NCBI GenBank assembly: GCA_036844485.1
Contig: DAIUFS010000005.1
Span: forward strand, 4,825-64,697
Length of the DNA stretch: 59,873 nt
From: Candidatus Dormiibacterota bacterium
GTDB lineage: Bacteria; Chloroflexota; Dormibacteria; Aeolococcales; Aeolococcaceae
Direction of reading: 5' to 3'
The notes under the pieces are model-generated. The model saw nothing but the letters and a program-made list of their open reading frames with translations, made no database searches and was not told the DNA's origin. Shown here one piece after another: positions 1 through 37,737 of the stretch. Every line of letters begins with the position of its first letter. Position 1 is the stretch's first letter. The position numbers and the translations under genes are program-made.

Positions 1-173
1 CGGCGGGCGGCCCGCCGGATGGCTCAGGGCGCGCTGAGGCGGCCCGCGTCGGTGCGCCGCGTCGAGGTGGTGGCCCTCTTCTGGCATCCTCCATTCGGGA
101 CCGACGCCGGCCTGACGATGACCTCCCCAGGCGAGGGTGCACTAGCTGGTTACCTGGCTCAAGGTCGAAACCC

Positions 174-202
174 TTGACGCTGCCCTCCCACCCGCCTACC
201 GT
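174..202 (+). promoter_or_regulatory. Sigma70-type promoter for the tad-like operon
   Basis: TTGACG (174-179), 17-nt spacer, TACCGT (197-202), about 100 nt upstream of the ATG at 303. Confidence 0.55.
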
Positions 203-302: not shown

Positions 303-938
303 ATGAACCGGCGTCGCCTGGCTGCAGCTGTGTTGTTCAGCACGGTCATCGTGCTGGTGCTCGGCGTGATGGTCTACCTCCAGCAGGCGGGCGGCCAGCA
401 GACGGTGACCGTGTACATCCTCAGGCACTCGGTGCTGGCCGGAAGCACCTACAGCGCCGACGACGTCGTTGCGGTGCCGGTGCACGCAGCGGAGGGTGAC
501 TTCAACTACGAGCACCGTTCAGCGGCGCAATACGCCGCCCGCTACACCGAGGACCTGCGGGGCAACGACATCCTGCGGGACGACGACCTTGTGGATCTCC
601 GGGCGGAGGTGGAGATCGCGCTGACGCTGCAATCTCCCCCACCTCTTTCTGCCGGAGATCGCGTCGATGTGTTCGCAACCATGGGCGGGGGCCGCCAGGC
701 ACGTATCGGGCAGGCGATGACTGTGCTGACCGTCTCCGGCGGCGCGCTCACCATCTTGGTGCCCATCGACCAGGAGGAGGCCTGGATCTCGGTGGCTGCA
801 TCGAGCATTGCGTTGCACGGGGCTCGATCGGGCCAGCAGGCTGGCGCGGCTGTGCAGCCGCTCAGTCCGGCTGACGCCGTGAGCGGCCTGTGTGGATCGA
901 ATTGTTCGGGGTTGATCGGCGGCAGCCCCTCGCCATGA
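303..938 (+). CDS. SAF-domain / CpaB(RcpC)-like Flp pilus assembly protein with N-terminal TM anchor
   Basis: N-terminal hydrophobic helix, SAF-like segment (VYILRHSVLAGSTYSADDV...LRGNDILRDDDL), RcpC-like 'LSAGDRVDVFAT'; first gene of a tad-like cluster. Confidence 0.7.
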   Translation: MNRRRLAAAVLFSTVIVLVLGVMVYLQQAGGQQTVTVYILRHSVLAGSTYSADDVVAVPVHAAEGDFNYEHRSAAQYAARYTEDLRGNDILRDDDLVDLRAEVEIALTLQSPPPLSAGDRVDVFATMGGGRQARIGQAMTVLTVSGGALTILVPIDQEEAWISVAASSIALHGARSGQQAGAAVQPLSPADAVSGLCGSNCSGLIGGSPSP

Positions 939-1657
939 GCACGCTCATCGCGGTCTACACGACTCGAGCCGGACAGACGTCGACTCACTGGGCGGTGTGC
1001 CTGGCGTGGGCCTTGGCCGAACGCCACCGGGTGCTGCTGGTCGATTGCGACATGGAGGGCGGCACCATCGCCGACCTGCTCCTCCTGCGGACTGATGGCC
1101 GAGGTGTCGCCAACTGCTTCGGTGATCGTCCTGCAACCACGGCTCAGCTGGCTGACCAGGCCGTGGCCCATCCGGCGAGAGAACGACTGCACGTGGTTCC
1201 CGGACTGGCACGGAGCTACGGGTATGAGGTCAGCGAGTGTCTTCGAAAGCTGGCGCCGGCGCTGGCGGGTGCAAGCGCAGACGTGGTGGTGGCTGATCTC
1301 GGCCACCCGCTGTCGCATCCCGGGCTGCGTTCGCCGAGAGCCGCTGCTGAGGCCATCTGTTCCGTGTTCGGGAGGGCCTTCATCGTCATTCGCGACGATC
1401 CCGCTCTGCTGTCACGGAGCATCGCGGTCCTGCAGGCGGCGAGGCCGCCCCATGGCGAGCTGATCATCTGCCACCAGCACGGCCGTGCCTACCGCCGGGC
1501 GATCCTGGAGAGCCTGCAGCACAACCTTCCCGAGATGGCGATCCGCGACGTATGGCAATGGGACGAGGCGCGGGCCGCGAGGATGGCCGAGAGCGGAGTG
1601 CCGGCGTCGTTGCTCGGCGTGATCGCGGACCTCAACATCGTGCCTGTGAGCGCGTGA
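935..1657 (+). CDS. CpaE/TadZ-like MinD/ParA-family protein with degenerate P-loop
   Basis: ATGA overlap with the upstream gene; 'RVLLVDCDMEGG' and 'DVVVADLG' are MinD/ParA-like; the Walker A position reads TTRAGQTST. Confidence 0.7.
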   Translation: MSTLIAVYTTRAGQTSTHWAVCLAWALAERHRVLLVDCDMEGGTIADLLLLRTDGRGVANCFGDRPATTAQLADQAVAHPARERLHVVPGLARSYGYEVSECLRKLAPALAGASADVVVADLGHPLSHPGLRSPRAAAEAICSVFGRAFIVIRDDPALLSRSIAVLQAARPPHGELIICHQHGRAYRRAILESLQHNLPEMAIRDVWQWDEARAARMAESGVPASLLGVIADLNIVPVSA

Positions 1658-3069
1658 TGCCTCCAGCCACCGACTCCGCCACCACCGAGCTCCGGCACTC
1701 GGCCATGTCGGCGAACCCAGAGGTGCCGGTCACCAGGTGGCCGGAGATTGCCTCCGAGGAGCTCGAGGTGGCTCAGGCCATCGCTGACGCGGTGATCCGA
1801 GGGCGCGGCGGGGAGCCGGCATCCGTGCTCCATGAAGAGCGGCTGCACACTGATGTTTCTGCCGTGATCGAGCGGGCCATCGCCTCGCCATCCACCAGCG
1901 GCCTGCCACTCGCCGTGGTCAGTGAACTCTCCGCCAACCAGGGATATCGGGACGTTGCCCGCCGCAACGCAGCCATCCTGGCCTCGCACCTCTGGCCACT
2001 GTCGCTGCTCATCTACGGCGCGGACCTGGAGAACATCACGTGCCTGGGGCACGACCACTGGCTGGTGAGCCTGGTTGGACGCAAGCTCTCACTGGTTGGC
2101 AACAGTCCCTTCGCCAGCGATGAGGATTGCATCGAGTTCTTTCGACGCGCGGTGCGGCTTCGCGGTGTCACCGGCGATCACAGCATCACGGACGCGGCAC
2201 CAATCGCCGAAGCCAATATCGGCAGTGTCGCGCGACTGTGCGTCGCCAAGCGCCCCGCCGTGTCGGGACAGGCGGCACTCAAGGCGGCAATCCGAATCCC
2301 GGCGAGGTCCAAGGTGCGCGACCTCGACGACTACGTGCACGCCGCGGTGATGCCGGAGGGGATGGCGCGCTTCATCGGAGCTTGCGTCGACGCGCGCGTG
2401 AACCTCATGATCGCCGGGGGCACGAGCACTGGGAAGACCACCCTGATGCGCGTTCTGTGCGGCATGGTCCCGCCCAGCGAGCACTTGGTGGTGGTCGAGG
2501 ACGGAGCGGAGCTTCATCTGGACCAGGATCGTGGCGACGGTCATCCGTGGCACACGCTGACCTCGGCTCTGTCGACAATCCCGTCGGTTCGCGCGGAGGT
2601 GGAGGCCGGTCAGTTGACAATGTTCGACCTGGTGCGTCACGCCCTGCGTTTCCAGCCGGACAGGCTGATTCTCGGTGAGTCCCGCGGCGAGGAGATGGCC
2701 GCCGTGTGCAAGGCTCTGATGACCGGGCACGATGGTTCCATGACCACAATCCATGCCGAGGACGCCGAGCTGGCGCTGGACCAGGCGGTGCAGTACGTCA
2801 TGGAGAACCGTCGTTTCACGGGCAACGAGAAGATGGCCAAGCGCGTCGTCGAGCACGCCATTCACCTGGTGCTGCACCTCGCCAACCAGGACGGACGCAG
2901 GCGCGTCACCGGCATTCTTGCGGTCGAGCGCGGTGGCAATCACAAATGGATCTATCGTCAGACCGACGGAGGTGGCTGGCGACGCATGACCGAGCTCGTA
3001 GGCAACCTCAGCCGCCTCGGATCACGATTGCACGCTCATCTGCAAAGTGACGAGATTCCGGTCCCGTGA
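1657..3069 (+). CDS. cpaF: CpaF/TadA (VirB11-family) secretion ATPase
   Basis: Walker A GGTSTGKTT, Asp box VEDGAEL, Walker B LRFQPDRLILGESRG, His box GHDGSMTTIHA; TGATG overlap gives the start. Confidence 0.93.
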   Translation: MPPATDSATTELRHSAMSANPEVPVTRWPEIASEELEVAQAIADAVIRGRGGEPASVLHEERLHTDVSAVIERAIASPSTSGLPLAVVSELSANQGYRDVARRNAAILASHLWPLSLLIYGADLENITCLGHDHWLVSLVGRKLSLVGNSPFASDEDCIEFFRRAVRLRGVTGDHSITDAAPIAEANIGSVARLCVAKRPAVSGQAALKAAIRIPARSKVRDLDDYVHAAVMPEGMARFIGACVDARVNLMIAGGTSTGKTTLMRVLCGMVPPSEHLVVVEDGAELHLDQDRGDGHPWHTLTSALSTIPSVRAEVEAGQLTMFDLVRHALRFQPDRLILGESRGEEMAAVCKALMTGHDGSMTTIHAEDAELALDQAVQYVMENRRFTGNEKMAKRVVEHAIHLVLHLANQDGRRRVTGILAVERGGNHKWIYRQTDGGGWRRMTELVGNLSRLGSRLHAHLQSDEIPVP

Positions 3070-3986
3070 CTCTGATCAGTGTCGGCCTGAGCGGGACGCA
3101 GTTCGTCGGGTTTCTGGTCGTCATCGCGTGCGCCTGTGGTGCTGTGGCAGCCATCCTCGACCTCGACATCCACGCTCTGGGGCGCGACCGTGCCCCGTCA
3201 CCCCTCCTGGAGCGCGAGCGCGACCTCGCCGCCAACCTCGGATGGCGATGGCGGAGTTGGGTCACCGTCCGCCTCGCTCTGATCGCAGCCGGGGTGGGAC
3301 TGGGACTCCTGTCGCGCATCTGGATCCTGGTTCTCATCGGCGGCCTGCTCGGCGTTTTCGGGTTTCGGTTCGCCCTGGCCGGCCGCGCGGCAACCCGTCG
3401 GCTGCGCGTCGAACGAGCCTTTCTGGGACGTTTGCGCGACCTCCGCGATCGGATGGCGATTGGCAACCAGTCTCTCGACACGGCGCTCCAGGAGATCGGT
3501 CGCAACCCCGGCCCCGAGCTGGAATACGTTCTGGCGCCGTTGGCTCGCGGGGGCTCGGTTCTCGATAACATCGTGGCTGTGGGAGCGCGCGCGCGCTCGC
3601 CCGTGGTCGAGTACGCGTGCGCAGTCCTGCTGTGGACGCGCAGCCGCAGCCTGGACGCGCTCATCGAGGCGATCGATGAGCTTCTTCTGCCGGTAGGTGA
3701 AGCACAACTGGCGGTTGAGGAGGAGGCCTCGGTCACCCTCACGCAACAGCGCGCGGTCACCATCGCCATGTCGGTCTTGATGCTCGTCATGTTCGCGGTG
3801 ATCGTGCGTGTGGATACCTTCCGCGCCTTTTACCAGTCGTTGGAGGGCAACGTGGTGCTGGTCATGGTGGTGCTGATCTTTGCCGCGCTGGTCGGACTTC
3901 TGGGTGTCATCGTCCGAGTGCGCGGCTGGACTCGTTGGGATCTGCGTCGCCTCGCCGAGGAGCAGGAGAGACTCGGTGCCCAATGA
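3066..3986 (+). CDS. tadB: TadB-like type II secretion system F-family membrane protein
   Basis: Follows cpaF (GTGA overlap); N-terminal TM pair, central helical domain ('GNQSLDTALQEIG'), two C-terminal TMs. Confidence 0.75.
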   Translation: MTLISVGLSGTQFVGFLVVIACACGAVAAILDLDIHALGRDRAPSPLLERERDLAANLGWRWRSWVTVRLALIAAGVGLGLLSRIWILVLIGGLLGVFGFRFALAGRAATRRLRVERAFLGRLRDLRDRMAIGNQSLDTALQEIGRNPGPELEYVLAPLARGGSVLDNIVAVGARARSPVVEYACAVLLWTRSRSLDALIEAIDELLLPVGEAQLAVEEEASVTLTQQRAVTIAMSVLMLVMFAVIVRVDTFRAFYQSLEGNVVLVMVVLIFAALVGLLGVIVRVRGWTRWDLRRLAEEQERLGAQ

Positions 3987-4875
3987 CCTCTGGCCGTATG
4001 TCCTTCTGACCATCGCCGTGGTGGCCCTGTGGGCGCTGGGACTCGCGCGTCTGGGCTTCCTGACGGGCGCCGACGTCCGCGCCTGGCGCCGGCTTGCCGT
4101 CCTGCGCGGCTACAGCCGGCCGCAGACCAGGTTGGAACGTGCCGCGGGACGGAGCCCGGTGCTGCGCCGGCTCCAGGAGGAGCTCGATCTCCGTCGTCTC
4201 CTGGCTGTTGCCGATCGCGATGAAACCGATACCGCCTTCCTCGCCCGCACGGTCTTCCTCGCCCTGCTGGCCATGACCGTGACCCTGGTGGTGGATACCG
4301 GCACGCGCCTCGGTGCCGGAGACTTCATCGTGTCTCCGTGGATCGCGGCCCTCATTGCCATGTTGGTCGTGCTGCTCCGCTTTTCTGCCCTCCGGGCCGC
4401 AGCACGGCGACGGCGGGAGAATGCTGACCGCACCCTCGGCGACATGATGATGCTGGTTGCCATCATGACCGACGGTCGCGGCCTCCAGGTCGAGGACGCC
4501 GTGCGGATCCTGGCAAGGTGTGTGAGATCGTCCGACTTGCGCAGCCTCGTCGAGGGCGGCTGGCGGCGGCTCATCCCCTCTCAGCCACGCAGCACGGCCG
4601 ATCTGTACCGGGCAATCGGCACCGAATACCGGCTCATGCAGTTCACGCTGGTCTCTGACGCCCTCAGCACAACCAACGTCGGAGTCGCCGAGCGGGACAC
4701 CTACACGCGTGTGGCCCAGGCGGTCTACCAGCAACGCCTCACCGAGGCGAGGATGCGTGCGGCGAGAGCGCGAATCCTGGTGACCTTGCCGGTGGCCGGG
4801 ATGCTCGTACCCCTGCTGCTGCTCCTCGGCGCCCCCACCTTTCAGAGCATCACCGTGGGCCTCGGGGGCGGCTGA
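3976..4875 (+). CDS. tadC: TadC-like type II secretion system F-family membrane protein
   Basis: Follows tadB; T2SSF-like 'GRGLQVEDAVRIL'; C-terminal '...ARARILVTLPVAGMLVPLLLLLGAP' is typical of TadC; GTG start inferred. Confidence 0.75.
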   Translation: MPNDLWPYVLLTIAVVALWALGLARLGFLTGADVRAWRRLAVLRGYSRPQTRLERAAGRSPVLRRLQEELDLRRLLAVADRDETDTAFLARTVFLALLAMTVTLVVDTGTRLGAGDFIVSPWIAALIAMLVVLLRFSALRAAARRRRENADRTLGDMMMLVAIMTDGRGLQVEDAVRILARCVRSSDLRSLVEGGWRRLIPSQPRSTADLYRAIGTEYRLMQFTLVSDALSTTNVGVAERDTYTRVAQAVYQQRLTEARMRAARARILVTLPVAGMLVPLLLLLGAPTFQSITVGLGGG

Positions 4876-4876
4876 C

Positions 4877-5254
4877 GTGGTGGTGCACCGCTTGCTCAGC
4901 GCCGCCGCCCTGATCGGCCTGACAGCCGCGCTCGCAGTCGTCGCCGGTTGGCCGGACGTTGGTCGAAGTCTGGATCTGGTGACCGGCCGCACCGTGACGG
5001 GCGCAACCGAGTTCGCCGTCATAGGCTTGCTCTGCTGGTTGATGCTCGCCGTCATGTCCGTCTTGGCGACTGTGGACGCTCTGCGACGCGCATCACGGCA
5101 GTCCGGCATCTTCACCCGATGGCTGTGGTGTTTGGTGATTCTTACCGCGGGAAGCACTCTGCTCGTCGCCGGGATCGCTCGGCATCAGAACCAATATCGG
5201 GTGTGCTGTGCCAATGCAGACACCGCTCAACAGGCGGAGCAACTTGTCCACTGA
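4877..5254 (+). CDS. Hypothetical 3-TM membrane protein (in the usual pilin position of the operon)
   Basis: ORF starts 1 nt after the tadC stop; three hydrophobic segments; C-terminal vicinal CC. Confidence 0.65.
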   Translation: MVVHRLLSAAALIGLTAALAVVAGWPDVGRSLDLVTGRTVTGATEFAVIGLLCWLMLAVMSVLATVDALRRASRQSGIFTRWLWCLVILTAGSTLLVAGIARHQNQYRVCCANADTAQQAEQLVH

Positions 5255-6782
5255 AGCCCGAGGGCTCGCCTTCATCTCGCTGCTCCGCGATGAGGTCGAG
5301 GCGCAAGCGCTCGCGTACCAGCTGGAGCGTGTCTCTCGCCCCTCCGCCAGAACCCCGATGGTGTTCCTGGTCCCCGGTGTGCGCGGCCTGGACTTCTTTG
5401 CCTCCACCGCCAGCCAGCCCGCGGTCGACCGCTGGTGGGCCAGCCATGTGCCGCCATCAGCGATGCCCGTCTACCTGCTCCGCCACGAGCACGGCCTGGC
5501 CGAATGGTTGGGCGGTTTGGACGGCGTATTCATGGTGGCGGCGCACCAGTCGGCGGCAGCCGCCTACTCCTCTTGGACGGTCATCGACGCCGACCACGAA
5601 TCAGCACCATCGGCACTCGCGAACGCAGCGATCGGCCGTTTTGGGATGCCTCCCGAGCCGGTTCAGCCCTCGGTGGCCGACATCTTCGATCGCACCGCCG
5701 CACCAATGATCGCCGCAGCCACCTCTGCCGGCAGCGCTGGCTCCGGCCGTCCCCGGCTTCCAACTCTGCTGCGTATCGACGGCGCTGAGGAGTCGGAGCC
5801 AGGCGGGGCTTCCGTGGCTGCCCCCGATCCCTTCGACCTCCTCGCCGCCGAGAGCGCTCGCAGCGAAGCGCAATCGCCCTCCATGGTCTCCCACAGCGAC
5901 GGGGGGTTCCGCCGGCCCCGGTCTGCAGCGGCGGGCATCCGGTCGCGGCTGCCACTGCTGGCCCGGCGCAGCAAGCCGGGCATGACGGACGCCGCCCTCG
6001 CGGCCCTCCTCGTCAATCGCGCTCCGACCCTGGTCGTCCTCGGATCGCGAAAGGGCGGCGTGGGCAAGACCAGTCATGCGGCGGGAATCGCCATCGCTGC
6101 CGGTGGAGTGCTCGACTCGGTCGGCCACCAGGCCGCGCTCGTCGACGCCAACATCGCCAACCCGGATGCGTGGGGCCAGCTCAACCTCCCCGCGCACGCG
6201 GCGACGGTGCGCGACGTGGCAGCTGCGCTCGGCAACGGCACCGAGCCGCCTCTCCCCATCCATGCGGCCACGCCGGCCCTGGCCTGCTATCCGGAGCGGC
6301 GCGACGGCGCCGAGTACAGCCGCACCGATATCCGACGGCTGGCAGCGCACCTGCGCGCCCGGTACACGTTCGTCGTGGTGGACATGAGCAACCGACTCCC
6401 GGATCCGACCGGCGGACCCGAGGCCACGGTGGCGGCGTACTGGCTGGAGGAGGCGGACGCGCTCGTTCTGCCGACGGCGACGAGCCGGCAGGACTTCAAC
6501 GGCGTCCTCGACTATCTCGACGTGTCCGACCTTCCGCCAACCGTGGTCCCCTGCATCGTGTCCTCGGCCCGTCGCAATCGACGTCACCCCATGACCCGGC
6601 AGTACCTCGACTCGATCACCGCGCGTGTGCAACGGCTGATCGAGCTTCCCGACGAAGCCGACAGCGTTCGCTTGGCAAGCATGGAAGGAGCCGCTGTGCA
6701 GGACCTGTCGCCGAGGATGCGCCGCGCCTACCGTGATCTCACCGAGGCGGTCGCACGACTGCCGGCGCGCGGGCGCCGATGA
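5244..6782 (+). CDS. MinD/ParA-family ATPase with long N-terminal extension
   Basis: Deviant Walker A SRKGGVGKTS, 'ALVDANIANPD', 'FVVVDMS'; TTG start at 5244 with GGAG upstream, overlapping the previous stop. Confidence 0.8.
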   Translation: MSTEARGLAFISLLRDEVEAQALAYQLERVSRPSARTPMVFLVPGVRGLDFFASTASQPAVDRWWASHVPPSAMPVYLLRHEHGLAEWLGGLDGVFMVAAHQSAAAAYSSWTVIDADHESAPSALANAAIGRFGMPPEPVQPSVADIFDRTAAPMIAAATSAGSAGSGRPRLPTLLRIDGAEESEPGGASVAAPDPFDLLAAESARSEAQSPSMVSHSDGGFRRPRSAAAGIRSRLPLLARRSKPGMTDAALAALLVNRAPTLVVLGSRKGGVGKTSHAAGIAIAAGGVLDSVGHQAALVDANIANPDAWGQLNLPAHAATVRDVAAALGNGTEPPLPIHAATPALACYPERRDGAEYSRTDIRRLAAHLRARYTFVVVDMSNRLPDPTGGPEATVAAYWLEEADALVLPTATSRQDFNGVLDYLDVSDLPPTVVPCIVSSARRNRRHPMTRQYLDSITARVQRLIELPDEADSVRLASMEGAAVQDLSPRMRRAYRDLTEAVARLPARGRR

Positions 6783-7219
6783 ACCTGGCGCGGGCGATCC
6801 GCGGGCGCCGTATTGGTGCGGACGACGATGCGCGACGCAGCCAGCGGGTGGCTGAGGTGTTGGGACTTATCGAGCGCTTCGTGTACGACCTCGGACTGCT
6901 CATCGCCGGTTGCGTCGTCGACCTCCATACCTACGTGGAGATGTCCGCGGCCTCGCGCTTGCGCAGCGCGCTCGAACCGGCTCGGACCGTTGTGGGGATG
7001 GTGCGCCCCGATTTCGGTGAGTACGCGCAGGTTCGAATCGAGGGCGACCTCCTCGACCTGTCCGCATCGGTACGGGCCGTGGTTGAGTTCGACGATCGCT
7101 CCACGCGTTCGGACGGCCCGGGAGGTTCGGTGGCCAGGTCGCGACGGCGGATTCGGGTGCGGCTGGTCCTCGATCCGGGGATAACCACGGTTCTCGACCA
7201 CCGCATCGAGGTGATGTGA
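6779..7219 (+). CDS. Hypothetical protein (possible NTF2/cystatin-like fold)
   Basis: ATGA-coupled to the MinD-like gene; helical N-terminus followed by alternating beta-strand pattern. Confidence 0.6.
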   Translation: MNLARAIRGRRIGADDDARRSQRVAEVLGLIERFVYDLGLLIAGCVVDLHTYVEMSAASRLRSALEPARTVVGMVRPDFGEYAQVRIEGDLLDLSASVRAVVEFDDRSTRSDGPGGSVARSRRRIRVRLVLDPGITTVLDHRIEVM

Positions 7220-7806
7220 TGTCTGGTGCCCGGGAGCCCGGCGTCATCGATCGTCGTCCGCAGAACCTTCCGGTGCCGCTGGGTGGGGACGCACCGGTTC
7301 GGGCACACCGCTCGCAGCGACGCCGACACATCCGAGGGCGCGCCGGGTTCCTCGTCGCCGGTGCCGGAGTCACCTGCGCCGCGCTGGGTCTGGGGCTACT
7401 TGCCGCCCCCGCGGCCACCGCGGCATCGCTGCTCGGGGACCGCGTCGAAATAGGCAGCATGGTGCTGCGCGAGAAAGGCCAGATCGGTGGATCCCATGCG
7501 ATTGTCTATTCGGGCGACGCATCCTACGTTCTGACCGAACATGGCGACGGGTCGGCGACGGCCGCGGCAGCGTGGGTGTCTTCGGGGGTGAACCTCTCCG
7601 GGGTATGCACCCTCAGGCCAGTGGAGGCTCGGCTGATCGACGAGTGCACCTTCACGATGAGCAGCGGGCAGCTCACGTCCGTCGACGTGCTCGACCCCGC
7701 TCGAGGCCAGGAGTGGCAGCGGACGTACGACGATGGTGTGCGCGCCTCCATCGTGGTGTCACCGGACGGTGCCGCAATCCCGGTGCCGTTCCCGATCGGG
7801 CGCTAG
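7216..7806 (+). CDS. Hypothetical secreted/membrane-anchored protein
   Basis: Overlap-coupled; Arg-rich n-region, hydrophobic stretch, AxA motif (ATAAS), beta-rich C-terminal domain with 2 Cys. Confidence 0.65.
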   Translation: MMSGAREPGVIDRRPQNLPVPLGGDAPVRAHRSQRRRHIRGRAGFLVAGAGVTCAALGLGLLAAPAATAASLLGDRVEIGSMVLREKGQIGGSHAIVYSGDASYVLTEHGDGSATAAAAWVSSGVNLSGVCTLRPVEARLIDECTFTMSSGQLTSVDVLDPARGQEWQRTYDDGVRASIVVSPDGAAIPVPFPIGR

Positions 7807-8874: not shown

Positions 8875-9762
8875 TCAGGGCGTCCGCTGCCGAGCGCGTG
8901 AGCGGCGCACCGCCGCGCGGAGCGGCGCCGTCATTCGCCAGCTTCGGGACTGGGTCAGGCTCTCCAGCCTCGACTCGGCGCGTTGCAGCAGGTCACGCAG
9001 CTCGCTGAGCTCCTCGCCGCTCCCCTCCGGAATTCGCGGCACCACCGGTGGCTGCGTGGCGATGCCCTTGGCGAACACGAAGATGAACTCCCCGTCGTCG
9101 TCTCCGTAGCAGGGGATAAATTCCAGCGGCTCGAGGGACAGGTCACCCTCCTTGCAAGCCGCCACCAGGAACTCAAGGAACGTGTCCGGCCTGAAGACGT
9201 GGAAATGGATGCTGTAGTCGAGCTCCATCAGCTCGCGCACCCGCGCCGCCATGCCGGCGGCGTCCAGCTTGGGCATGCCGGCGACGTGCGCCTCGACGTT
9301 GTGCACCCAGTCGCGAAAGTGCTCTTCGCGGGCGGCGTCGGGCCCGTTGCGATACTCGTCAACGACGTGGGCGATCGGCGTGATATCGCGGAACCTGTCG
9401 AAGCTCACACGTGGCTCGGGCAGCGCGACGTAGAGAACGCCGCCCGGACGCAGGACCCGCACCATCTCCTTCAACCCTCGTATGGGATTGTCGAGATGTT
9501 CGATCAGATGATTGGCGATCACGAAGTCGAGGGAGCCGTCCGGGATGGCGCTGAGATCGTGCGCGTCTCCGATGATCGACACCGGTGCGAGGTTCTCGTT
9601 GGCGAGCTCGGGATAGTGTCGCCGGAGCTCTTCGCTCCGCATGCGATCGACGTAGCGCACGTCAACGTCCGGTGGCAGGTGCAGCGGCTCGTGAAGGGCG
9701 CCGATCTCTATCCCGGACCCGCTCACCCACCGCGCCGCGCGCCAGCGTTTCCCCGCTTTCAT
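8875..9762 (-). CDS. Class I SAM-dependent methyltransferase with C-terminal coiled coil
   Basis: 'GIEIGAL', 'SLDFVIANHLIEH', 'VLRPGGVL'; C-terminal 'ESLTQSRSWRMTAPLR'. Confidence 0.85.
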   Translation of the reverse strand: MKAGKRWRAARWVSGSGIEIGALHEPLHLPPDVDVRYVDRMRSEELRRHYPELANENLAPVSIIGDAHDLSAIPDGSLDFVIANHLIEHLDNPIRGLKEMVRVLRPGGVLYVALPEPRVSFDRFRDITPIAHVVDEYRNGPDAAREEHFRDWVHNVEAHVAGMPKLDAAGMAARVRELMELDYSIHFHVFRPDTFLEFLVAACKEGDLSLEPLEFIPCYGDDDGEFIFVFAKGIATQPPVVPRIPEGSGEELSELRDLLQRAESRLESLTQSRSWRMTAPLRAAVRRSRARQRTP

Positions 9763-9951
9763 TGACGGCCCCGATCCCTCCCAGCACTGATGGTCGGCGA
9801 TGCTAACACCGGGTGCCCGGCCTACTCGACAGCTTGGAAGGGCGGCGGTCGCCGGGGCATGGCCGCACTGGCCGGGCACGGCAACCTCGACGGTCAGAAC
9901 CCTATGGGACGGCTCTGACGCGGTGGGCTCAGGGGAACGCCCAGACTCCGA

Positions 9952-10431
9952 TCAGCCGTCGTGCTGGGGTTCCCCCGCAGTGACCAGCTCGCCGTTGGCC
10001 TCGCCGACGCCGGCGGATTCCCCGGGCCTCGGCTCCTCGCTGTCGTCGAGGTCCTTGCCGCCGCTCATGTTGATGCTCCCGTTGAGAGTGGCGCCGTCAT
10101 CGACCTTGAGACGTGCGGCGGAGGCGTCACCGTGAAGACTGCCGGAGCCGCTCAGCGAGAGGCGCCTGCTGCTGGTGACGTTCCCCTTGACCTGTCCGCG
10201 AATGTCGATGTTGCGACCCTCGATGGCGGCCACCACCGTCGCGGACGCCTCGACGATCACGTCGCCGGCCGCAAAGATCTCACCCTCCACTGCACCGCCA
10301 ATGGTGACGCCGCTGTCGGTGCGCAATGTCCCATTCAGGGAATCATTGGGTCCGAGCACGATGGGGCCGCCGGTGCCGCCGGCGTTGCCGCGCTGGCGCC
10401 CGGCACGGATGCCCGGGGTCTCAATAGCCAT
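9952..10431 (-). CDS. Bactofilin (polymer-forming cytoskeletal protein, CcmA/DUF583)
   Basis: Beta-helix repeats 'IVLGPNDSLNGTLRTDSGVTIGGAVEGEI...IRGQVKGNV...LKVDDGATLNGSINM'. Confidence 0.93.
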   Translation of the reverse strand: MAIETPGIRAGRQRGNAGGTGGPIVLGPNDSLNGTLRTDSGVTIGGAVEGEIFAAGDVIVEASATVVAAIEGRNIDIRGQVKGNVTSSRRLSLSGSGSLHGDASAARLKVDDGATLNGSINMSGGKDLDDSEEPRPGESAGVGEANGELVTAGEPQHDG

Positions 10432-10538
10432 CTTTCACCACTCCCAGCGTGAGCACGGCTCGAGTGAGGGGTGCTCTCCTGCCCAACCGCTACGATTCTA
10501 GCGCTCCTCGCTCCTGGAGGATCGCACGGAGTGTGACG

Positions 10539-11519
10539 ATGGGCAGCCCGAGTTCGCGCGAGACCGCTGGCTATGACCGCGCGCTCACCGGCTTCCTGCA
10601 TACGCTCGCCGACCATGACGACCAGTGGGAGGGGGGGCTTCATCGGGAGGTTGCCACCCGCCTGGTGGACCTCACCGGCGCCGAGGCCGGCGAAGCGTGC
10701 CTCGATATCGGAGGCAGTGCGGGGATCGTCACCACCGCCCTGAGTAGAGCGGTGGGGCCTGATGGGTGGGTGGTCACCACCGACATCAGCGAGCCTTCTA
10801 TCGAGGTCGCGCGCTCCCGAGCGACCGGTCACACCCATCTCGTGAAGATGACCGCGGACGACGTGATCTTTCGCGACCACACCTTCGACGTGGTGGTGCT
10901 GTCTCGGTCGATTACCCACGAGGCCGATCCGCACTCGGTCATCGCCGAAGCCAGCCGCGCCCTCAAGCTGGGTGGACGGCTGGCCTTGTTCTGCCGCCGA
11001 CGCAGCCTGGCCACTCCCGCCGAGCAGGCGTTCCTCGATGAGCTGGCGGTGTTCGTGCAACACCACCCGGTCAATCTGCCCCATCAGTTCCTGGGGTACC
11101 CAGGGTTGGCCGATCGAACAGAGGTGGAAGGGGCGCTGATGGCTGCGGGATTCGACAAGGTCACCTTTGGCGACGTGGTGACCGGTGGACGGGCGGACGA
11201 CTCGGCCTCGTGGAACCGCGAAATGATGCGCTGCTGGCCGGCGGCCGCCATCCTCCTCCGCGGGCTGGGTGCCACCAAGCGTCTGCAGTTCGAGGGGCAG
11301 ATCGAGCGAATCATGGCAACGCTGGGCGACGAGGCCTTCCGCTATCACCATCCCTACCTCCTGGCGACCGGGATCAAGATACGGGATCAGCCGTCAGCCG
11401 TCGCGGTGGTGCTGCCCGGCGGGACGAGAGCCCTGCCACTGGGAAACCGGCATCGCGGCGGTGGCGAGGGTGATCCCCACGAGGAAAGCGACAGTCGTGA
11501 CAACCACGCGACGGCGTGA
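10539..11519 (+). CDS. Class I SAM-dependent methyltransferase (UbiE-like)
   Basis: 'ACLDIGGSAG', 'VVTTDISEPSIEVAR', 'TFDVVV', 'RALKLGGRL'; the C-terminal tail overlaps a convergent gene. Confidence 0.8.
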   Translation: MGSPSSRETAGYDRALTGFLHTLADHDDQWEGGLHREVATRLVDLTGAEAGEACLDIGGSAGIVTTALSRAVGPDGWVVTTDISEPSIEVARSRATGHTHLVKMTADDVIFRDHTFDVVVLSRSITHEADPHSVIAEASRALKLGGRLALFCRRRSLATPAEQAFLDELAVFVQHHPVNLPHQFLGYPGLADRTEVEGALMAAGFDKVTFGDVVTGGRADDSASWNREMMRCWPAAAILLRGLGATKRLQFEGQIERIMATLGDEAFRYHHPYLLATGIKIRDQPSAVAVVLPGGTRALPLGNRHRGGGEGDPHEESDSRDNHATA

Positions 11520-12518: not shown

Positions 12519-15278
12519 GTGGCACCGGGTATAGTTCTGGCCATACTTGGCGCGTCGATGACGCTGTCTCCAGGGACGGTGCACGCGTTCGGCAAGGTCG
12601 CCTACAGCCAGGTGCCCGAATCGCTGATCGCCAGCGGGGCGGCGAGCCTACCCGTTGGCTACGGCAGCGGAAGCAACTTCTGTGCCAGCGTCTCAGGCAC
12701 TGTCAGCGTCAACGGGCGCCCGCAGACCATCACCGGCGCAAACCTTGTGGGCAGCGGCGGTGTATCTGCGCAGGTCGACAAGGTGTACGCGTGTAGGCCG
12801 GCCGAGGGTTACGCGTGGAGCAACGATGCCATCGAGGGCGATTTCCAGTGCACTGAGCTCAGCGTTCGCTATTTGTGGGACGTCTACGGGATCGGCGCCG
12901 TTGGCGTTCGTTCCGGGTACTCATTGGTGTCCGACGTCAAGGCACAATTCCCCAACATTCAAGTCGGTACGCCCGGTCCGCGCAACCTTCCCCTTCCAGG
13001 TGACGTGCTCAGTATGGGTGGAGGAGCCGCCTCACCCAATGCAAACCCCAACGGCCATACGGCTGTCGTCACCTCCGTCAATGTCGATACCAATCCGCTG
13101 AGCCCCACGTATGGCAACGGAACCATCACCGAGGTCGAGGAGAACGGCAGCAGCACGGGATGGGATCAGCTCACCGTCTCGAACTGGTCGATCTACTTTG
13201 GCGACCCCAGCACGGTCAACCAGCCGATGAACTACTACTACCCGGACATCTCCTGGCTCGAGATGTCGACGGCGGGGACCCCGCCGGCGTTCACCGCTGC
13301 GAACCCTCCTGCAGTCGTCACCGCCGGGATGTCGCCGACGTACACATTCGCTGCCAGCGGCGACCCCCTGCCGGTGTTCGCAGTCCAGAGCGGCGCCCTG
13401 CCCCTCGGTCTCCAGCTCAACACGGCCGGCGTCCTGACCGGCGCCGCTACCACCGCTGGTGCCTCGTCCTTCTCGGTCGCAGCCAGCAACCGCGCGGGAT
13501 CAGCGGTCACCCCCAAGCTCACCATCGTCACGCCGGCGGCCCAGCTCCATGCGGACGTCAACGGTGACGGGAAATCTGATCTCATCGCGGTCAGCGACAC
13601 AACGACGTCTGTGATGCTCTCCAACGGGCCGGGCTTTGGTCCCGCCACATATTGGTCGACAACGCCCTTCTACGGCTCGCGTGGGACATTCGCCGCCGAC
13701 GTCAACGGCGATGGCAAATCCGATCTGGTTACCGTCGACGAGACCGCCACCTGGGTGATGCCGTCGACGGGATCGAACTTTGCTGCGCCACAGAAATGGT
13801 CCTCCACCCCCTTCTACGGGTCGCGGGGCACTTTCCTGGCTGATGTCAACGGGGACGGCCGCACCGACCTGGTCGCTGTCAACGACACCTCAACCTGGGC
13901 GATGCTCTCGACGGGGTCTGGATTTGGTCCACCGCAGCTCTGGTCGACGACGGCCTTCTACGGCACGAAGGCGACCTTCCTGGGCGATGTCAACGGAGAC
14001 GGCAAGTCCGATCTGGTCGCCGTGGACGATACGGCCACATGGGTGATGCTCGCGACGGGCTCCGGGTTCGGTACGCCGCAGCAATGGTCGGCGACTCCGT
14101 CTTCTGGCACCCGCGGCACCTTCCTTGCCGATGTCAATGGAGATGGCAAGTCCGACCTGGTCGCGGTCAACGACACCAGCACGTCGGTGATGTTTGCGCT
14201 CGGCACCGGTTTTGGGCCGCCGGTAAGGTGGTCATCGGACAGCTTCTATGGCAGCAGAGCCACATTCATGGCTGACGTCAGCGGCGGTGGCAAGGCGGAT
14301 CTCGTTGCCGTCAACGACAATTCAACCTGGGTGATGCTGTCAATGGACTCGCGCTTTGGCCCCGCTCAAACCTGGACGTCGACGCCTTTCTTCGGCTCGC
14401 AGGCGACGCTGTCCGGCGACGTCAACGGCGACGGCAGGTCGGATCTGGTTGCCGTCAACGGCAATTCAACCTGGGTGATGCTGTCCACGCCGTCGGGATA
14501 CGCTGCACCGGCCCTCTGGTCATCGACCCCGTTCTACGGCACGAGGGGCACCTTCCTGGCCGACGTCAACGGCGACGGCAAGGCTGACCTGATTGCCGTG
14601 AACGACAATTCCACGTGGGTCATGCTGTCCAATGGGCTCGGCTACGGGCCCCCCCAGCAGTACTCCTCCGGCCCGTTCTACGGTTCCAGGCACACGTTCC
14701 TCGCGGATCTCAACCATGACGGCAAAGCTGACCTCGTCGCCGTCGACGACGCCTCGACCCGGGTGATGCTGTCCACCGGGACCGCCTTCGCGCTGCCAAC
14801 GGTGTGGTCGCAGAGTCCGTTCTACGGCACGAGGGGCACCTTTCTGGCCGACGTCAACGGCGACGGCAAGGCTGATCTGGTGGCGGTCAACGACAGCTCG
14901 ACATGGGTGATGGCGTCGACCGGCACAGGCTTCGGTCCGCCGACCGCATGGTCTTCCACCCCCTTCTACGGCGCGCGAGCGACACTGCTCGCGGACGTGA
15001 ACGGAGATGGCAGGGCCGACTTGGTCGCTGTCAACGCCACGAGTACGTGGGTGATGCTGTCCAGCGGTGCTGGGTTCGGCGCGCCGAGGCTCTGGTCGAC
15101 TAGCGGCACCACTGGTTCGCTAGGAACGTTCGCGGCGGATGTCAACGGCGACGGTTTGATGGATCTGGTGAGCGTCAACCCTCACGGTACCATCGTGACC
15201 CCGGCAACGAGCCCGTCGTTTGACCCCCCAACCGGCTGGTCGGCGCGGCCATTCACGGGTACAAAAGCGATCCTTTAG
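12519..15278 (+). CDS. Secreted CHAP-like amidase + putative Ig domain + 12 FG-GAP/VCBS-like repeats
   Basis: Signal peptide; 'FQCTEL...PGDVL...GHTAVV...VEEN' (Cys-His-Glu); He_PIG-like 'GALPLGLQLNTAGVLTG'; DVNGDGxxDL repeats. Confidence 0.85.
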   Translation: MAPGIVLAILGASMTLSPGTVHAFGKVAYSQVPESLIASGAASLPVGYGSGSNFCASVSGTVSVNGRPQTITGANLVGSGGVSAQVDKVYACRPAEGYAWSNDAIEGDFQCTELSVRYLWDVYGIGAVGVRSGYSLVSDVKAQFPNIQVGTPGPRNLPLPGDVLSMGGGAASPNANPNGHTAVVTSVNVDTNPLSPTYGNGTITEVEENGSSTGWDQLTVSNWSIYFGDPSTVNQPMNYYYPDISWLEMSTAGTPPAFTAANPPAVVTAGMSPTYTFAASGDPLPVFAVQSGALPLGLQLNTAGVLTGAATTAGASSFSVAASNRAGSAVTPKLTIVTPAAQLHADVNGDGKSDLIAVSDTTTSVMLSNGPGFGPATYWSTTPFYGSRGTFAADVNGDGKSDLVTVDETATWVMPSTGSNFAAPQKWSSTPFYGSRGTFLADVNGDGRTDLVAVNDTSTWAMLSTGSGFGPPQLWSTTAFYGTKATFLGDVNGDGKSDLVAVDDTATWVMLATGSGFGTPQQWSATPSSGTRGTFLADVNGDGKSDLVAVNDTSTSVMFALGTGFGPPVRWSSDSFYGSRATFMADVSGGGKADLVAVNDNSTWVMLSMDSRFGPAQTWTSTPFFGSQATLSGDVNGDGRSDLVAVNGNSTWVMLSTPSGYAAPALWSSTPFYGTRGTFLADVNGDGKADLIAVNDNSTWVMLSNGLGYGPPQQYSSGPFYGSRHTFLADLNHDGKADLVAVDDASTRVMLSTGTAFALPTVWSQSPFYGTRGTFLADVNGDGKADLVAVNDSSTWVMASTGTGFGPPTAWSSTPFYGARATLLADVNGDGRADLVAVNATSTWVMLSSGAGFGAPRLWSTSGTTGSLGTFAADVNGDGLMDLVSVNPHGTIVTPATSPSFDPPTGWSARPFTGTKAIL
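13551..15278 (+). repeat. Twelve tandem 144-nt (48-aa) intragenic repeats
   Basis: Repeat starts at 13551 and 13695 are 144 nt apart; 12x144 ends exactly at the stop codon; consensus FLADVNGDGKxDLVAVNDxSTWVMLSTGxGFGPPxxWSSTPFYGxRxT. Confidence 0.95.
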
Positions 15279-22965: not shown

Positions 22966-24354
22966 ATGACTCAATCCGATCGCCGCCTGCTCAGCCTTGT
23001 CCTCCTCAGCGTCGGCGTCCTCGACCGTTTCGGCAACCTCTCTACTCCGGCGCTCATACTGATTGTCTTGTCCGTGGGGCTGGGCATCCAAAGTTTCTCG
23101 CGGAAGCCCTTGGGCCCGGCCCTGCCGCGCTCGGCGGGGATCGCGTTGCTGGTGGCGCTCGCGGCGACCACGCTTCTCTATCAGAGGAAGTTTGGCGATC
23201 CGCTGTTCCTGGACACGTTCGCCCTGCTCGCTGCCGCCGTCGTCCTCTACAGCGTGGCAAAGCGCGGCGTGGCCAAGGCTGTGGCGTTCGCATTCGCTGG
23301 TCTGTCAACCATGGCAGCGATCCTGGCGAACGCCAGCTGGGCGTACGCCGACATCGACGTGTTCCACTTCCAGCAGCAAGCGTCGCAGGCGTTGTTGCAC
23401 GGGCAGAACCCCTACTCCCCCGTGGTGCCAAGCCCGCAGATGGTCGCGCCCGGAGTCCTGGGGTGGTTGCACCTGCATTTTCCCTACGGACCCATCCTGC
23501 CCGTGCTCGAAGCCCCGTTTCGCCTTCTCGGCGACGTTCGCATCCTGCACGTGGTGGCAGCCCTCATCACCTCGGTGGCCGTTCTGACGCTGGCACGCCG
23601 GGCAGGGACACTCGACCGCAGCGCCTGCGTGGTGATGGCGTTTCCGCTGACCGTCGGCATGATCATCTTCAGCTGGGTCGACGTCATCACCATGGCCGGC
23701 CTGGCGGTGTGGCTCGTCTCCTTCCGCAGCCATCCGAAGATCGCGACCTTAGCGCTGGCGCTGGCACTGGGAGCCAAGCCGACGACCCTCATAGCGTTGG
23801 TGCCGATCTTCTTCTGGTCGATCCGCGCCCGGCGGCAGGTGATCCTCGCCGCCATCGTCGCCGGGCTGTTCGTGCTTCCTTTCGCGGTGGTCACCGGCCT
23901 CTCACAGTTCTACTACAACGTTCTCGGTGTCCAGCTCGCGGTCCTTCCCCGGTTCGACGCCCTCACCATCAACTCGTACCTCCACTCGTACCAGCTGCCC
24001 ATTCTTCCGTTTGCGGTGTCGGCTTCAGTCATTGCCGCCGCGACTGTGCTGGTGTTGCGCCAGCGTCCCACCACGTACGGTGACCTCCTCACAGGGACGG
24101 CCATCCTCGCCACCGTGTCCTTCCTGGTCGCCAAGTGGGCATACCTCAACTACTACTACATCCCTGCGGTGCTGCTGATGCTGGCGATTGCGGGCAACGG
24201 GCTGGCTCTCGACGTTCCCGAGATGATCAGACCCCCCGCTGTGTTCCTCAGATCCGGTGATTGGTTACGCCGAACATTGGACCGCCTTCCTACGCCTCGG
24301 CGCCTTCCGGGTGCGAACATCCCTGCTCGTGAGGCACCTGAATCGGTGGCCTGA
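22966..24354 (+). CDS. GT-C fold (GT87/DUF2029-like) multi-pass membrane glycosyltransferase
   Basis: 'IDVFHF...ALLHGQNPY', 'FPYGP', 'ALGAKP', 'NYYY'; many TMs; next to the GT2 gene. Confidence 0.7.
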
Positions 24355-27132: not shown

Positions 27133-28782
27133 ATGATGCCGTACGGTTCGTCATGGCACGAGGAGCTCAACCTCCTCATCGACGCGCTGCCGCCCCGCAT
27201 CGCGAGTGCTGCGCAGCGCCTGACCCAGGAGCGCCGTGAGCTCCTCGAGATCGTGCTCGACCTCGGCCGTGAGCCTGAAGCTCGGTTCACCGACGGAGAG
27301 GAGATCCTCGACAGCGTGCAGGTCACTCACCATGACCTCGAGTACGTGACAGAGCGTGTCGGTGACTTTGGCGACGACAATCGCGCGGGCATCGAACGAA
27401 CCCTGCACCGCATCAGCGCCATCCGCAACCGTGCGGGCACGGTGGTGGGGCTGACCTGCCGCGTCGGTCGCGCCGTCACCGGCACCATCGACATCATCAA
27501 GGACATCGTGGTCAATGGCCAGTCCATTCTCCTGCTCGGTCCACCCGGAATCGGCAAGACGACGATGTTGCGAGAGTGCGCCCGCGTGCTAGGCGATGAG
27601 TGTGGCAAGCGCGTGGTGATCGTCGACACCAGCAACGAGATCGGCGGCGATGGGGACATCCCTCATGCCGGCATCGGGCGCTCCCGGCGCATGCAGGTGC
27701 GCACCCCTCCCGAGCAACACGCGGTGATGATCGAGGCGGTGGAGAACCACATGCCGCAGGTCATCGTCATCGACGAGATCGGCACGGGTTTGGAGGCGAT
27801 GGCGGCTCGCACCATCGCAGAACGCGGCGTGCAGCTGGTGGGCACGGCCCACGGATCAAACCTCGACAACCTGCTCGTCAATCCCACGCTCAACGACCTG
27901 CTCGGTGGTATCCAGACAGTCACGCTCAGCGACGAGGAGGCGCGGCGGCGGGGTACGCAGAAGAGCGTGCTCGAACGCAAGGCTCCGCCCACGTTCGACG
28001 TCCTCATCGAGATCCAGGAGCGAGACCGCGTGGTGGTGCATATGCCACTCGACGAGACGGTCGACGAGGCGCTGCGCGGACGCATGAAGCCGCCCCAGCT
28101 GCGACTGCGCGGCGAGGGCGGCCAGATTGTCAGCCGCATCGATACCAGCATCCCCCCGCCGCCGTCGTTCGAGCCCAGCCCTTTCGCGGCCGGGGCGGGA
28201 CGGCGGCGCGGCCGTGAACGAGGCCGCCGCCGCGGTTTCGACGTCGAGGAGTACATGGCCCAGCGATCGCGTGAGGCCTCGTCGGACGGAGGGAGCGCGA
28301 CGCACACATCGGCACGTCCGATGCAACCGCTCGCGGTGTTTCCGTACGGCGTCTCCAGAACCTACCTCGAACAGTCGGTGCGTGAGCTCCACGTGCCGGT
28401 TCGCATCCAGCACAACGTCGACGACGCCGACATGGTGCTGACGCTGAAGAACTACTACCGTCGCAAGGACTCGCCGGTTCGCTCCGCCGAGGCCACCGGC
28501 ATTCCCGTCCAGGTGTTGCGAAGCAACACGGTGGCGCAGATCAAGGGCGCGCTGGCCAAGGTCTACGGCGTTGAGGACGTGGATGAAACCGAGAGCGCGC
28601 TCGAAGAGGCACTCGAAGCCGTCGAGCGGGCGCGGCACACCACCTCGGACGTCGAGCTGGCGCCACAGAACTCGTACGTGCGCCGCCTCCAGCACCAACT
28701 TGTCGAACGCCACGACATGGCCGCGCGCAGCACCGGGAACGAGCCCAACCGCCGCCTCGTCATACTCGGTGCCGAGGAGTGA
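27133..28782 (+). CDS. Ycf45/SpoIIIAA-like AAA ATPase with C-terminal R3H domain
   Basis: '[13 protein letters not shown]', '[14 protein letters not shown]', 'VIVIDEIG', 'GTAHG'; R3H '[14 protein letters not shown]'. Confidence 0.9.
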
Positions 28783-37212: not shown

Positions 37213-37311
37213 CAGACGGCTCGAAGGTAGCATCGATCAGGCGAGCGGTCATCGCCTCCCTGCAACGGGTCCGTGAGCGCCGTGCCGCACGGGCGTTCCA
37301 TACTCGGCCCG

Positions 37312-37737
37312 ATGCTGAGCAGGATCGACCACGTGGGCATCGCCGTCCGCGACATCGACGCCGCCGTGGAGGCATATCAGCGCCTCCTGGGGCGGGCTCC
37401 CAGCCACCGACAGCTGGTGGAGTCGGACGGCATCGAGGCGGTCATGTTCGAGGTCGGCGAGTCGCGCGTCGAGCTGCTCGGATCGACCGGTCCCGAGTCC
37501 AAGATCGCCGGCTTCCTCGAGCGCCGGGGGGGCGGACTCCACCACGTCGCCTACGGCGTCGACGACGTCCAGGCGGCGCTCGACGAGTACATCAGCCTCG
37601 GTCTCCAGACCCTGGACAGCTGCCCGCGCCGGGGTGCTGCCGGCCGGTTGGTCGCCTTCCTTCACCCCTCGGCGGCGATGGGGGTGCTCACCGAGCTCTG
37701 CCAGCCCGATCCCGACGCCGCCGGGCACAGCGGGTGA
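37312..37737 (+). CDS. mce: Methylmalonyl-CoA epimerase
   Basis: VOC fold 'IDHVGIAV', 'VELL', 'FLERRGGGLHHVAY', 'FLHP', 'LTEL'; next to the mutase. Confidence 0.93.
   Translation: MLSRIDHVGIAVRDIDAAVEAYQRLLGRAPSHRQLVESDGIEAVMFEVGESRVELLGSTGPESKIAGFLERRGGGLHHVAYGVDDVQAALDEYISLGLQTLDSCPRRGAAGRLVAFLHPSAAMGVLTELCQPDPDAAGHSG

Follow-up and report, generated by a model that had tools for sequence, protein, structure and literature searches.

In Tad/Flp (type IVc) pilus loci such as that of Caulobacter, the genes follow the order CpaB-CpaE-CpaF-CpaG/H. The same order, in the form of CpaB-like, TadZ/CpaE-like, CpaF, TadB-like and TadC-like genes, was found in an operon of nine genes (g1 to g9) of an uncultured soil bacterium of the Dormibacterota. 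The operon occupies positions 303-7806 on the + strand of the 59.9-kb stretch of DNA analysed here (59,873 nt, 68% GC; hereafter the window). In contrast to Tad/Flp loci, it has no Flp, TadE/F or TadV genes in cis. It also has no secretin, as expected for a monoderm, and Dormibacterota are counted among the monoderm clades (10.1101/2021.05.31.446380). All parts of the operon but the ATPase lie below family thresholds, the P-loop of one TadZ-like copy is dead, and four conserved genes are added to the core (g6, the second TadZ-like gene g7, g8 and g9).

In the sister phylum Chloroflexota, also monoderm, Litorilinea aerophila carries two tadZ copies together with tadE and flp (10.1101/2025.08.19.671072). 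As described in that paper, on which alone the comparison is based, the Chloroflexota tad clusters resemble the operon by rcpC/cpaB preceding tadZ-tadA-tadB-tadC and by the duplicated tadZ. They differ by containing flp and tadE and by their link to visible pili.

The other machinery to be compared is the conjugation-type type IV secretion system (T4SS) of monoderms (MPF-FA/FATA-like). Genes for VirB4, VirB6/TrbL-like, VirD4, M23/SLT hydrolase, VirB2-like pilin and SSB proteins flank the operon in relatives. The ATPase g3 scores on the TrbB and VirB11 models nearly as on the TadA model, and VirB11-type ATPases are rare outside MPF-T T4SSs (PMC4027160). Monoderm T4SSs have, however, not been described with a TadB/TadC platform, CpaB or TadZ, and the window itself is without a T4SS gene. 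The best NCBIfam match of g3 is the actinobacterial family TIGR03819, 'TadA family conjugal transfer-associated ATPase' (1.3e-40), whose conjugal context is given by the name only; the searchable literature offered nothing specific on the basis of this name. The family's cutoff of 373 bits is far above the 139.6 bits of g3, which is therefore no member. Plasmid R64 (IncI1) offers a case of a type IV filament-family module located within a T4SS transfer region, its thin pilus serving mating. This module belongs to type IVb and has its own pilins (pilS, pilV); the likeness is taken as a lead.

The explanation favoured here, for which the chances are judged about even, is that the operon encodes a pilin-less Tad-derived module coupled to a T4SS-like apparatus, the genes of which flank it in most lineages. 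The gene neighbourhood suggests this coupling: as the module is embedded in a T4SS gene cluster in most relatives, it probably serves the T4SS rather than an ordinary adhesive pilus.

The nine-gene operon and its Tad-like core

The genes of the operon and the gene preceding it (uA) were called as follows.

1-177, + strand: 3' end of uA, the gene inside which the window opens
303-938, + strand: g1, 211 amino acids, CpaB/RcpC-like
935-1657, + strand: g2, 240 amino acids, TadZ-type fold, putative pseudo-ATPase
1657-3069, + strand: g3, 470 amino acids, CpaF/TadA-type ATPase
3066-3986, + strand: g4, 306 amino acids, probable diverged TadB-type protein
3976-4875, + strand: g5, 299 amino acids, TadC-like
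4877-5254, + strand: g6, 125 amino acids, protein with three transmembrane (TM) helices
5244 (alternative starts 5214/5208)-6782, + strand: g7, 512-524 amino acids, TadZ/CpaE-like
6779-7219, + strand: g8, 146 amino acids, cytoplasmic protein
7219 (alternative start 7216)-7806, + strand: g9, 195 amino acids, predicted membrane-anchored protein

The operon is real. Adjoining genes overlap by 1, 4 or 11 nt and the single gap measures 1 nt (junctions from g1 to g9: -4, -1, -4, -11, +1, -11, -4 and -1 nt), while the next gene follows g9 after a gap of 82 nt. A coding signature was detected in codon-position GC for all nine open reading frames (ORFs), with a third-position value (GC3) of 0.78-0.83. 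Identical gene calls were obtained on independent contigs of metagenomes and metagenome-assembled genomes (MAGs) which are 99.9-100% identical to the window, including GCA_036564445.1. This confirms the original prediction, made from the window's sequence alone, of nine tightly joined genes. Their placement behind one promoter was not confirmed: a motif scan revealed no sigma-70 consensus promoter upstream of g1, and since the window also begins inside uA, which is encoded on the same strand and ends at 177, a single promoter is unverified.

Only g3 was recognised by Pfam and NCBIfam among the nine window proteins. It matches Pfam T2SSE (9e-27) and scores at ~1e-37 to 1e-40 on the TIGR03819, TrbB and VirB11 models, all under the respective cutoffs. 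Its nearest solved structure is CpaF 8rkd (5e-30 over residues 114-423, covering N- and C-terminal domains), CpaF 9e24 was also matched, and the best plasmid matches in tblastn are annotated as CpaF. These comparisons firmly assign g3 to the CpaF/TadA-type secretion ATPases of the VirB11/TrbB/TadA superfamily branch.

Family alignments of g1, g2, g4, g5 and g7 were built from the related loci and compared by hhalign with the canonical Tad proteins encoded in four annotated tad loci of plasmids (L086-L089); unrelated pairs served as control and gave E-values of 0.3-0.8. The g1 family matched CpaB with 59% probability (E 9e-5), and Pfam SAF was detected in 10 of 22 members (best 7e-7), the window protein by itself being marginal (E 0.02-0.08). 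This supports a probable CpaB/RcpC-like protein made of an N-terminal TM anchor and an SAF-type domain.

The family alignment of g2 showed a degenerate Walker A motif (TTRAGQTST) in every relative. The protein aligned with the TadZ ATPase domain at 90% (E 1.4e-6), and its profile matches in the PDB were weak (FleN, Soj, BcsQ). The profiles support a ParA/MinD/TadZ-type fold, and the degeneracy conserved in all relatives makes g2 a predicted P-loop-dead pseudo-ATPase. The second such protein, g7, has a conserved N-terminal domain of ~130 amino acids (predicted alpha/beta) and a variable Pro/Ala-rich linker, followed by a ParA/MinD/TadZ-type ATPase domain in which the deviant Walker A is intact (GSRKGGVGKTS). 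Its best PDB profile match is MinD 4v03 (6e-4). It had originally been described as a second MinD ATPase; an intact ATPase of the ParA/MinD type is indeed encoded, but g7 is the more TadZ-like of the two proteins (95%, E 4.5e-8 in hhalign) and its architecture is, by profile comparison, TadZ/CpaE-like. For both g2 and g7, the comparison with TadZ does not discriminate TadZ from MinD/ParA in general.

The TM layout of g4 is like that of TadB and the layout of g5 like that of TadC. The g5 family was matched to TadB and TadC together at 95% (E 2e-8) and to TadC alone at 91% (E 1e-6). Pfam T2SSF was detected in 17 of 40 g4 and g5 members taken together and in none of the 25 g4 members, so that the matches belong to g5 (about 17 of 20). 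A TadC/T2SSF-type platform subunit is thus supported by profile comparison for g5. For g4, hhalign gave a weak, colinear match to TadB (E 0.007, range 0.002-0.007), and Spore_III_AB was matched by 12 of 25 members (best E 0.0078). In a low-confidence single-sequence model of g4 (pLDDT 57), the only low-rmsd matches were the cytoplasmic domains of SpoIIIAB, PilC-N, OutF and EpsF (TM-scores of 0.55-0.63, E-values not significant). PDB profile searches with g4 and g5 returned nothing useful, and no mutual similarity signal was found that would make the two proteins paralogues. Taken together, g4 is a polytopic membrane protein and probably a very diverged TadB/GspF-type platform subunit, the support for which is weak. 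The predicted Tad-like core order therefore stands with unequal strength: CpaF is firm, the TadC-, TadZ- and CpaB-like members follow from profile comparison, and the TadB-like member is the least secure.

A scan of one genome per species yielded 79 related loci, nearly all labelled Dormibacterota. Of all genes in the cluster g3 is the best conserved, and hundreds of its close homologues carry the name Candidatus Dormibacteraeota or Dormibacteria. Two cluster types were distinguished: type-1, with 73 loci including the window and an ATPase 63-93% identical (85-93% within the window's subclade), and type-2, with seven loci (L075, L077, L078, L079, L080, L081 and L084) and an ATPase 37-47% identical. 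Both were seen together in one MAG only. Following the loci by tblastn and ORF chaining showed that gene order is identical throughout, within the reach of each contig, and g1-g7 and g9 were found wherever the contig extends far enough, in type-1 and type-2 alike. Beyond the nearest loci, g6 was too diverged for tblastn and was followed by ORF chaining in 38 loci. The gene g8 occurs in roughly half of the loci: clades A and B have it, as does one type-2 locus (L075), and it is missing from clade C. The trailing genes thus belong with the core, g6, g7 and g9 keeping the same order in every locus that reaches so far. Of the two findings that were to speak jointly against a repurposed motor, pilin genes upstream or elsewhere and trailing genes not conserved with the core, the latter is thereby removed. 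A very diverged Tad/Cpa-type motor module without pilin genes in cis is firmly established as vertically conserved in Dormibacterota.

The same conservation argues against a decaying, non-functional remnant of a mobile conjugative element, an explanation given almost no weight here. It would account for the loss of adjacent T4SS genes in the window's lineage and for a few metagenome contigs (L109, L110, L114) in which the stretch from VirB4 to g9 is deleted and VirD4 truncated. It is contradicted by nine intact reading frames with a coding GC3 signature, by the ATPase identities given above for the subclade and for type-1, and by the gene order kept in the type-1 loci of the one-genome-per-species contigs. 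Moreover, the flanks are of housekeeping nature and no integrase was found among the ORFs scanned.

Trailing genes, pilin searches and a second cluster type

No Pfam or NCBIfam match was obtained for g6, a protein with three TM helices, a conserved 'PD' after the first of them and a conserved C-terminal 'CCG...EA..LAR' (38 homologues aligned). It was considered as a hidden prepilin ('G|ATEF'), but the 'GATEF' stretch is unconserved among the 38 homologues. By its sequence, g6 is lineage-specific and not a prepilin. The g8 protein is cytoplasmic, has no TM helix and carries the conserved motif 'RPDFGxxGxLRIEGDLL'. It matched no Pfam or NCBIfam family and no PDB sequence, and its consideration as a VirB8/NTF2-like protein, lacking both a TM helix and such a match, was a guess only.

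In g9, a conserved cytoplasmic N-terminal motif of ~30 residues ('IDRxPQxLPVPLGGxxP') is followed by one TM helix and an ectodomain, and the C-terminus is conserved as well ('PVPFPxGR'). The ectodomain was modelled by AlphaFold as an all-beta, beta-barrel-like structure of 11 strands with two conserved Cys (pLDDT 85 overall, above 93 in the ectodomain). Foldseek returned no significant match in the PDB, weak calycin-like barrels only, and all homologues are unnamed and without a Pfam domain. The model indicates a bitopic membrane-anchored protein, and the original description of g9 as a secreted protein is not supported. A pilin-like nature was also considered and rejected: no conserved Gly/Glu5 lies near the TM helix, and a beta-barrel-like ectodomain on a 30-residue helix has no pilin match. 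On sequence grounds, g6, g8 and g9 represent new protein families.

Pilin genes were searched for with a local hidden Markov model (HMM) of the TadE N-terminus, a regular expression for class-III signal peptides, and phmmer with Flp and A24 peptidase queries. No TadE, Flp or prepilin peptidase gene was detected in the window or within ~±10 kb of the 73 type-1 loci, many contigs being shorter than that. The best E-value of the TadE HMM was 0.48 and belonged to g6. The Flp search was weak, as it relied on two proteobacterial queries only. Two queries for Peptidase_A24 gave nothing below E 0.3 in the window or in any locus, and the family is also absent from Pfam scans of about 39 window ORFs. 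The predicted lack of Flp/TadE prepilins and of a prepilin peptidase was thus confirmed for the window and the type-1 flanks.

The type-2 clusters present a different picture. All seven have three pseudopilin-like genes directly upstream of g1 (e.g. L078:7277-8630), two of which score above the TadE gathering threshold of Pfam (e.g. 40.9 and 26.5 against 22.9 bits), the third being TadE/TadG-like. No Flp or prepilin peptidase was found within their flanks. As far as their contigs extend, these clusters have g1-g7 and g9 in common with type-1, and in L075 also g8. They differ by the pseudopilin-like genes and by flanks without T4SS genes. As g6, g7 and g9 coexist there with true pseudopilins, they are accessory parts and not pilin replacements. 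The idea that the trailing genes are substrates or pilin stand-ins of a pilin-less machine was consequently not borne out.

A gene pair divergent from the cluster was observed upstream of g1 in both clade C of type-1 (L055:7242-7910, L057:7165-8450) and type-2 (L078:5992-7258). It consists of a response-regulator receiver protein (F23) and a protein of ~190 amino acids without family match (F17 and relatives), and might serve both cluster types as their dedicated regulator.

An envelope or secretion machine independent of both pilins and T4SS is regarded as improbable; here g9 would be a substrate or an outer part, g6 and g8 would serve as adaptors, and g2 and g7 would see to positioning. In essence, this is the repurposed machine of the original prediction. 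Co-conservation of g6, g7 and g9 with the core in both cluster types would fit such a machine, as would a cluster that stays intact where T4SS genes are not adjacent; the ectodomain of g9 is confidently predicted as a novel beta fold, and its conserved cytoplasmic N-terminal peptide could dock on the motor. However, the accessory genes co-occur with TadE pseudopilins in type-2 and hence do not take the place of a filament, a whole clade does without g8, and the recurrent linkage to T4SS genes (see below) is left unexplained.

The main competing explanation, considered rather unlikely, is an ordinary Tad (type IVc) pilus of which the Flp/TadE pilins and the peptidase are encoded elsewhere, the T4SS neighbourhood being incidental, for example an old inserted element. 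All core Tad inner-membrane parts are present. Type-2, with the same accessory genes, has TadE-family genes yet likewise no Flp or peptidase in its flanks, so that parts encoded in trans would be normal in this phylum. Its gene set is compatible with a pseudopilin-bearing Tad system, and pilins encoded elsewhere are accordingly possible for type-1 too. The Chloroflexota tad clusters point in the same direction, with rcpC-tadZABC and, in one of them, two tadZ copies (10.1101/2025.08.19.671072). On the other hand, the searches within ~±10 kb of the 73 type-1 loci, or less where contigs were shorter, found no TadE-type gene, whereas one lies directly upstream in seven of seven type-2 loci, and the occurrence of both cluster types in one MAG only also speaks against an ordinary pilus.

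Type IV secretion genes around the related loci

The flanking ORFs of all loci were clustered and the recurrent families identified by Pfam/NCBIfam. Of the type-1 loci, 44 have flanks of 5 kb or more on each side; a T4SS gene was found in 36 of these, and seven of the eight loci without one belong to the window's own subclade (ATPase at least 85% identical). The families detected include VirD4-type T4SS-DNA_transf (1e-50), VirB4 TIGR00929 (1e-28), TrbL_4 (1e-9), T4SS_pilin (9e-4), M23 (6e-15) and SSB (6e-29). No T4SS gene was found within the flanks of the type-2 loci.

The linkage is present in three of four Dormibacterota clades with varying gene order. In clade B (27 loci), a 92-amino-acid VirB2-like protein, VirB6/TrbL-like, VirB4 and an M23 hydrolase are followed by g1-g9, VirD4 and the family F5, the same-strand M23 gene ending 28-165 nt ahead of g1. 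In clade A2, uA lies ahead of g1, an SLT/M23 hydrolase or a VirB6-like gene is located further upstream in single loci, and a same-strand VirD4 gene begins about 70 nt past g9. Clade C has F5, SSB, TrbL_4 and T4SS_pilin downstream, and upstream the divergent response regulator which it has in common with type-2. A metagenome scan with VirD4 agreed with these results and added a few loci in which the stretch from VirB4 to g9 is deleted as a whole.

Such an arrangement was observed in L109 (10321-12200), L110, L114 and L115, where a truncated VirD4 abuts the VirB2-like gene and VirB6-VirB4-M23-g1..g9 are seemingly missing. The T4SS core and the Tad-like module seem to have been deleted together there.

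No gene neighbours the system more constantly than F5 (~350-395 amino acids; L043:17969-19018, L120:11787-12977), seen in 42 loci. It has no Pfam or NCBIfam match, and its N-terminal region may be DUF4388/PATAN-like. It stays paired with VirD4 even where both lie away from the cluster.

In clade A, the window included, uA is conserved and immediately precedes g1; relatives carry it between g1 and T4SS genes (SLT/M23 hydrolase, VirB6-like). The protein measures 237-257 amino acids (window 1-177; L001:2626-3399), has no family match and contains 'VVALFWHPPFG' in its C-terminus. An 'ALFWHPP'-type motif may occur in partners of coupling proteins. A T4SS-derived fragment was considered, but hhalign showed no relation to T4SS or Tad families. 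Nevertheless, uA may belong to the system.

The window's subclade is where the linkage is missing. Upstream there is only uA, and downstream an iron permease, methyltransferases and a bactofilin. In one genome of this subclade, the cluster and a VirD4-F5 pair share a 1.87-Mb contig, on which they lie ~180 kb apart; the context of the pair is conserved in other MAGs.

A cluster standing alone and still highly conserved in this subclade fits an ordinary Tad pilus. In the other three clades, by contrast, the T4SS linkage is kept with differing gene orders, same-strand and near-contiguous in two of them. Chance insertion is hard to reconcile with a linkage that persists through rearranged gene orders.

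We infer the functional coupling of the module to the T4SS, and the roles of its individual parts, from these observations. The original prediction of a repurposed motor gains support from the VirB4, VirB6, VirD4, VirB2-like and M23 neighbours in most lineages; the part of it that made the trailing genes substrates is not supported. In the favoured explanation, the module would be a strongly diverged Tad/Cpa-type (type IVc filament family) motor in the cytoplasmic membrane of a monoderm. The CpaF-type ATPase g3 would be hexameric, g4 and g5 would form the TadB-like/TadC-like platform pair, and g1 would be a membrane-anchored CpaB-like SAF protein. The catalytically dead g2 and the intact g7 would probably act in positioning or scaffolding of the machine, with g6, g8 and g9 as lineage-specific parts and no filament subunits of its own. 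In some lineages, the module is probably co-transcribed with the T4SS set, namely the VirB2-like pilin, VirB6-like, VirB3/4, the M23 cell-wall hydrolase, the VirD4 coupling protein and SSB. As the pilin-less version is embedded in this gene set in three of four clades, it is proposed to be an accessory or energising sub-assembly of a T4SS-like transfer apparatus, bringing a VirB11-like ATPase with its own platform, alignment and positioning proteins. Assembly or anchoring of the T4SS pilus or channel may be among its tasks. In the window's subclade, the partner genes would have been dispersed to other chromosomal sites.

A more far-reaching form of this proposal is put forward tentatively. There, a complete Tad-type inner-membrane motor that has lost its own pilins would be an integral part of a monoderm conjugation-type T4SS, a hitherto undescribed hybrid apparatus in which the motor fills the role played by VirB11 in Gram-negative systems, for example by powering the assembly of the VirB2-like pilus or of the translocation channel.

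Several points weigh against coupling to a T4SS. The coupling is read from gene neighbourhood only, and no VirB4, VirB6, VirD4 or other T4SS gene is present in the 60 kb of the window, to which the search for VirB4 and VirB6 in the window's own genome was confined. No relaxase was recognised near any locus in the general family scans of the flanks, in which no dedicated relaxase search was included; a relaxase and an oriT would be required for the system to count as conjugative. The flanking genes were called on MAG contigs with a heuristic of our own. Furthermore, the assignment of g4 is weak, and the type-2 paralogue shows the gene set to be compatible with a normal pseudopilin-bearing Tad system.

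Other features of the window and biological meaning

Further features were identified in the window outside the operon.

8875-11519: block with two class I methyltransferase genes
9952-10431, - strand: bactofilin, between the two methyltransferase genes
12519-15278: secreted protein with CHAP domain, dockerin-like repeats and many FG-GAP repeats (FG-GAP_3 2e-90), 5 kb downstream of the operon
22966-24354, 35977-37233 and 42053-43735: three GT87-family glycosyltransferases
27133-28782: SpoIIIAA-like AAA ATPase with phosphotyrosine phosphatase-like domain and R3H, unrelated to the operon
37734-39314: methylmalonyl-CoA mutase (MM_CoA_mutase 3e-216)
53817-55544: LytR-CpsA-Psr gene

The identical contigs likewise have the block at 8875-11519 conserved behind the operon. 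The product of 12519-15278 may be a cell-wall-active or adhesive surface protein. The GT87 and LytR-CpsA-Psr genes suggest actinobacteria-like synthesis of a cell-envelope glycopolymer in a monoderm phylum. A tRNA-Ile(GAT) called by ARAGORN at 38876-38953 lies inside the methylmalonyl-CoA mutase ORF and is probably a false positive.

The component superfamilies of the operon are already known, and so is the occurrence, in Chloroflexota as the sister phylum, of a duplicated tadZ and of rcpC-tadZABC layouts. What appears to be new is the conserved pilin-less architecture of nine genes with three new families and a pair of dead and live TadZ-like proteins and, above all, a full Tad platform embedded in a monoderm T4SS locus. 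The searchable literature contained no description of such an architecture and nothing specific on pili of Dormibacterota.

Tad pili and T4SSs count as distinct machines, with only a distantly related ATPase in common. Here, a soil phylum that is uncultured and globally abundant retains a whole Tad motor without pilins, integrated time and again into a T4SS locus. Should its pilins be encoded elsewhere, the operon would represent a very diverged but ordinary Tad system. If the two machineries are coupled, it would show how VirB11-type ATPases and their partners get recruited into secretion systems, it would provide a new architecture for monoderm T4SSs, and it would suggest the transfer of DNA or protein as a conserved trait of Dormibacterota. 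If the hybrid apparatus holds true, it would illustrate, in a living system, that modules can pass between the type IV filament and type IV secretion superfamilies.

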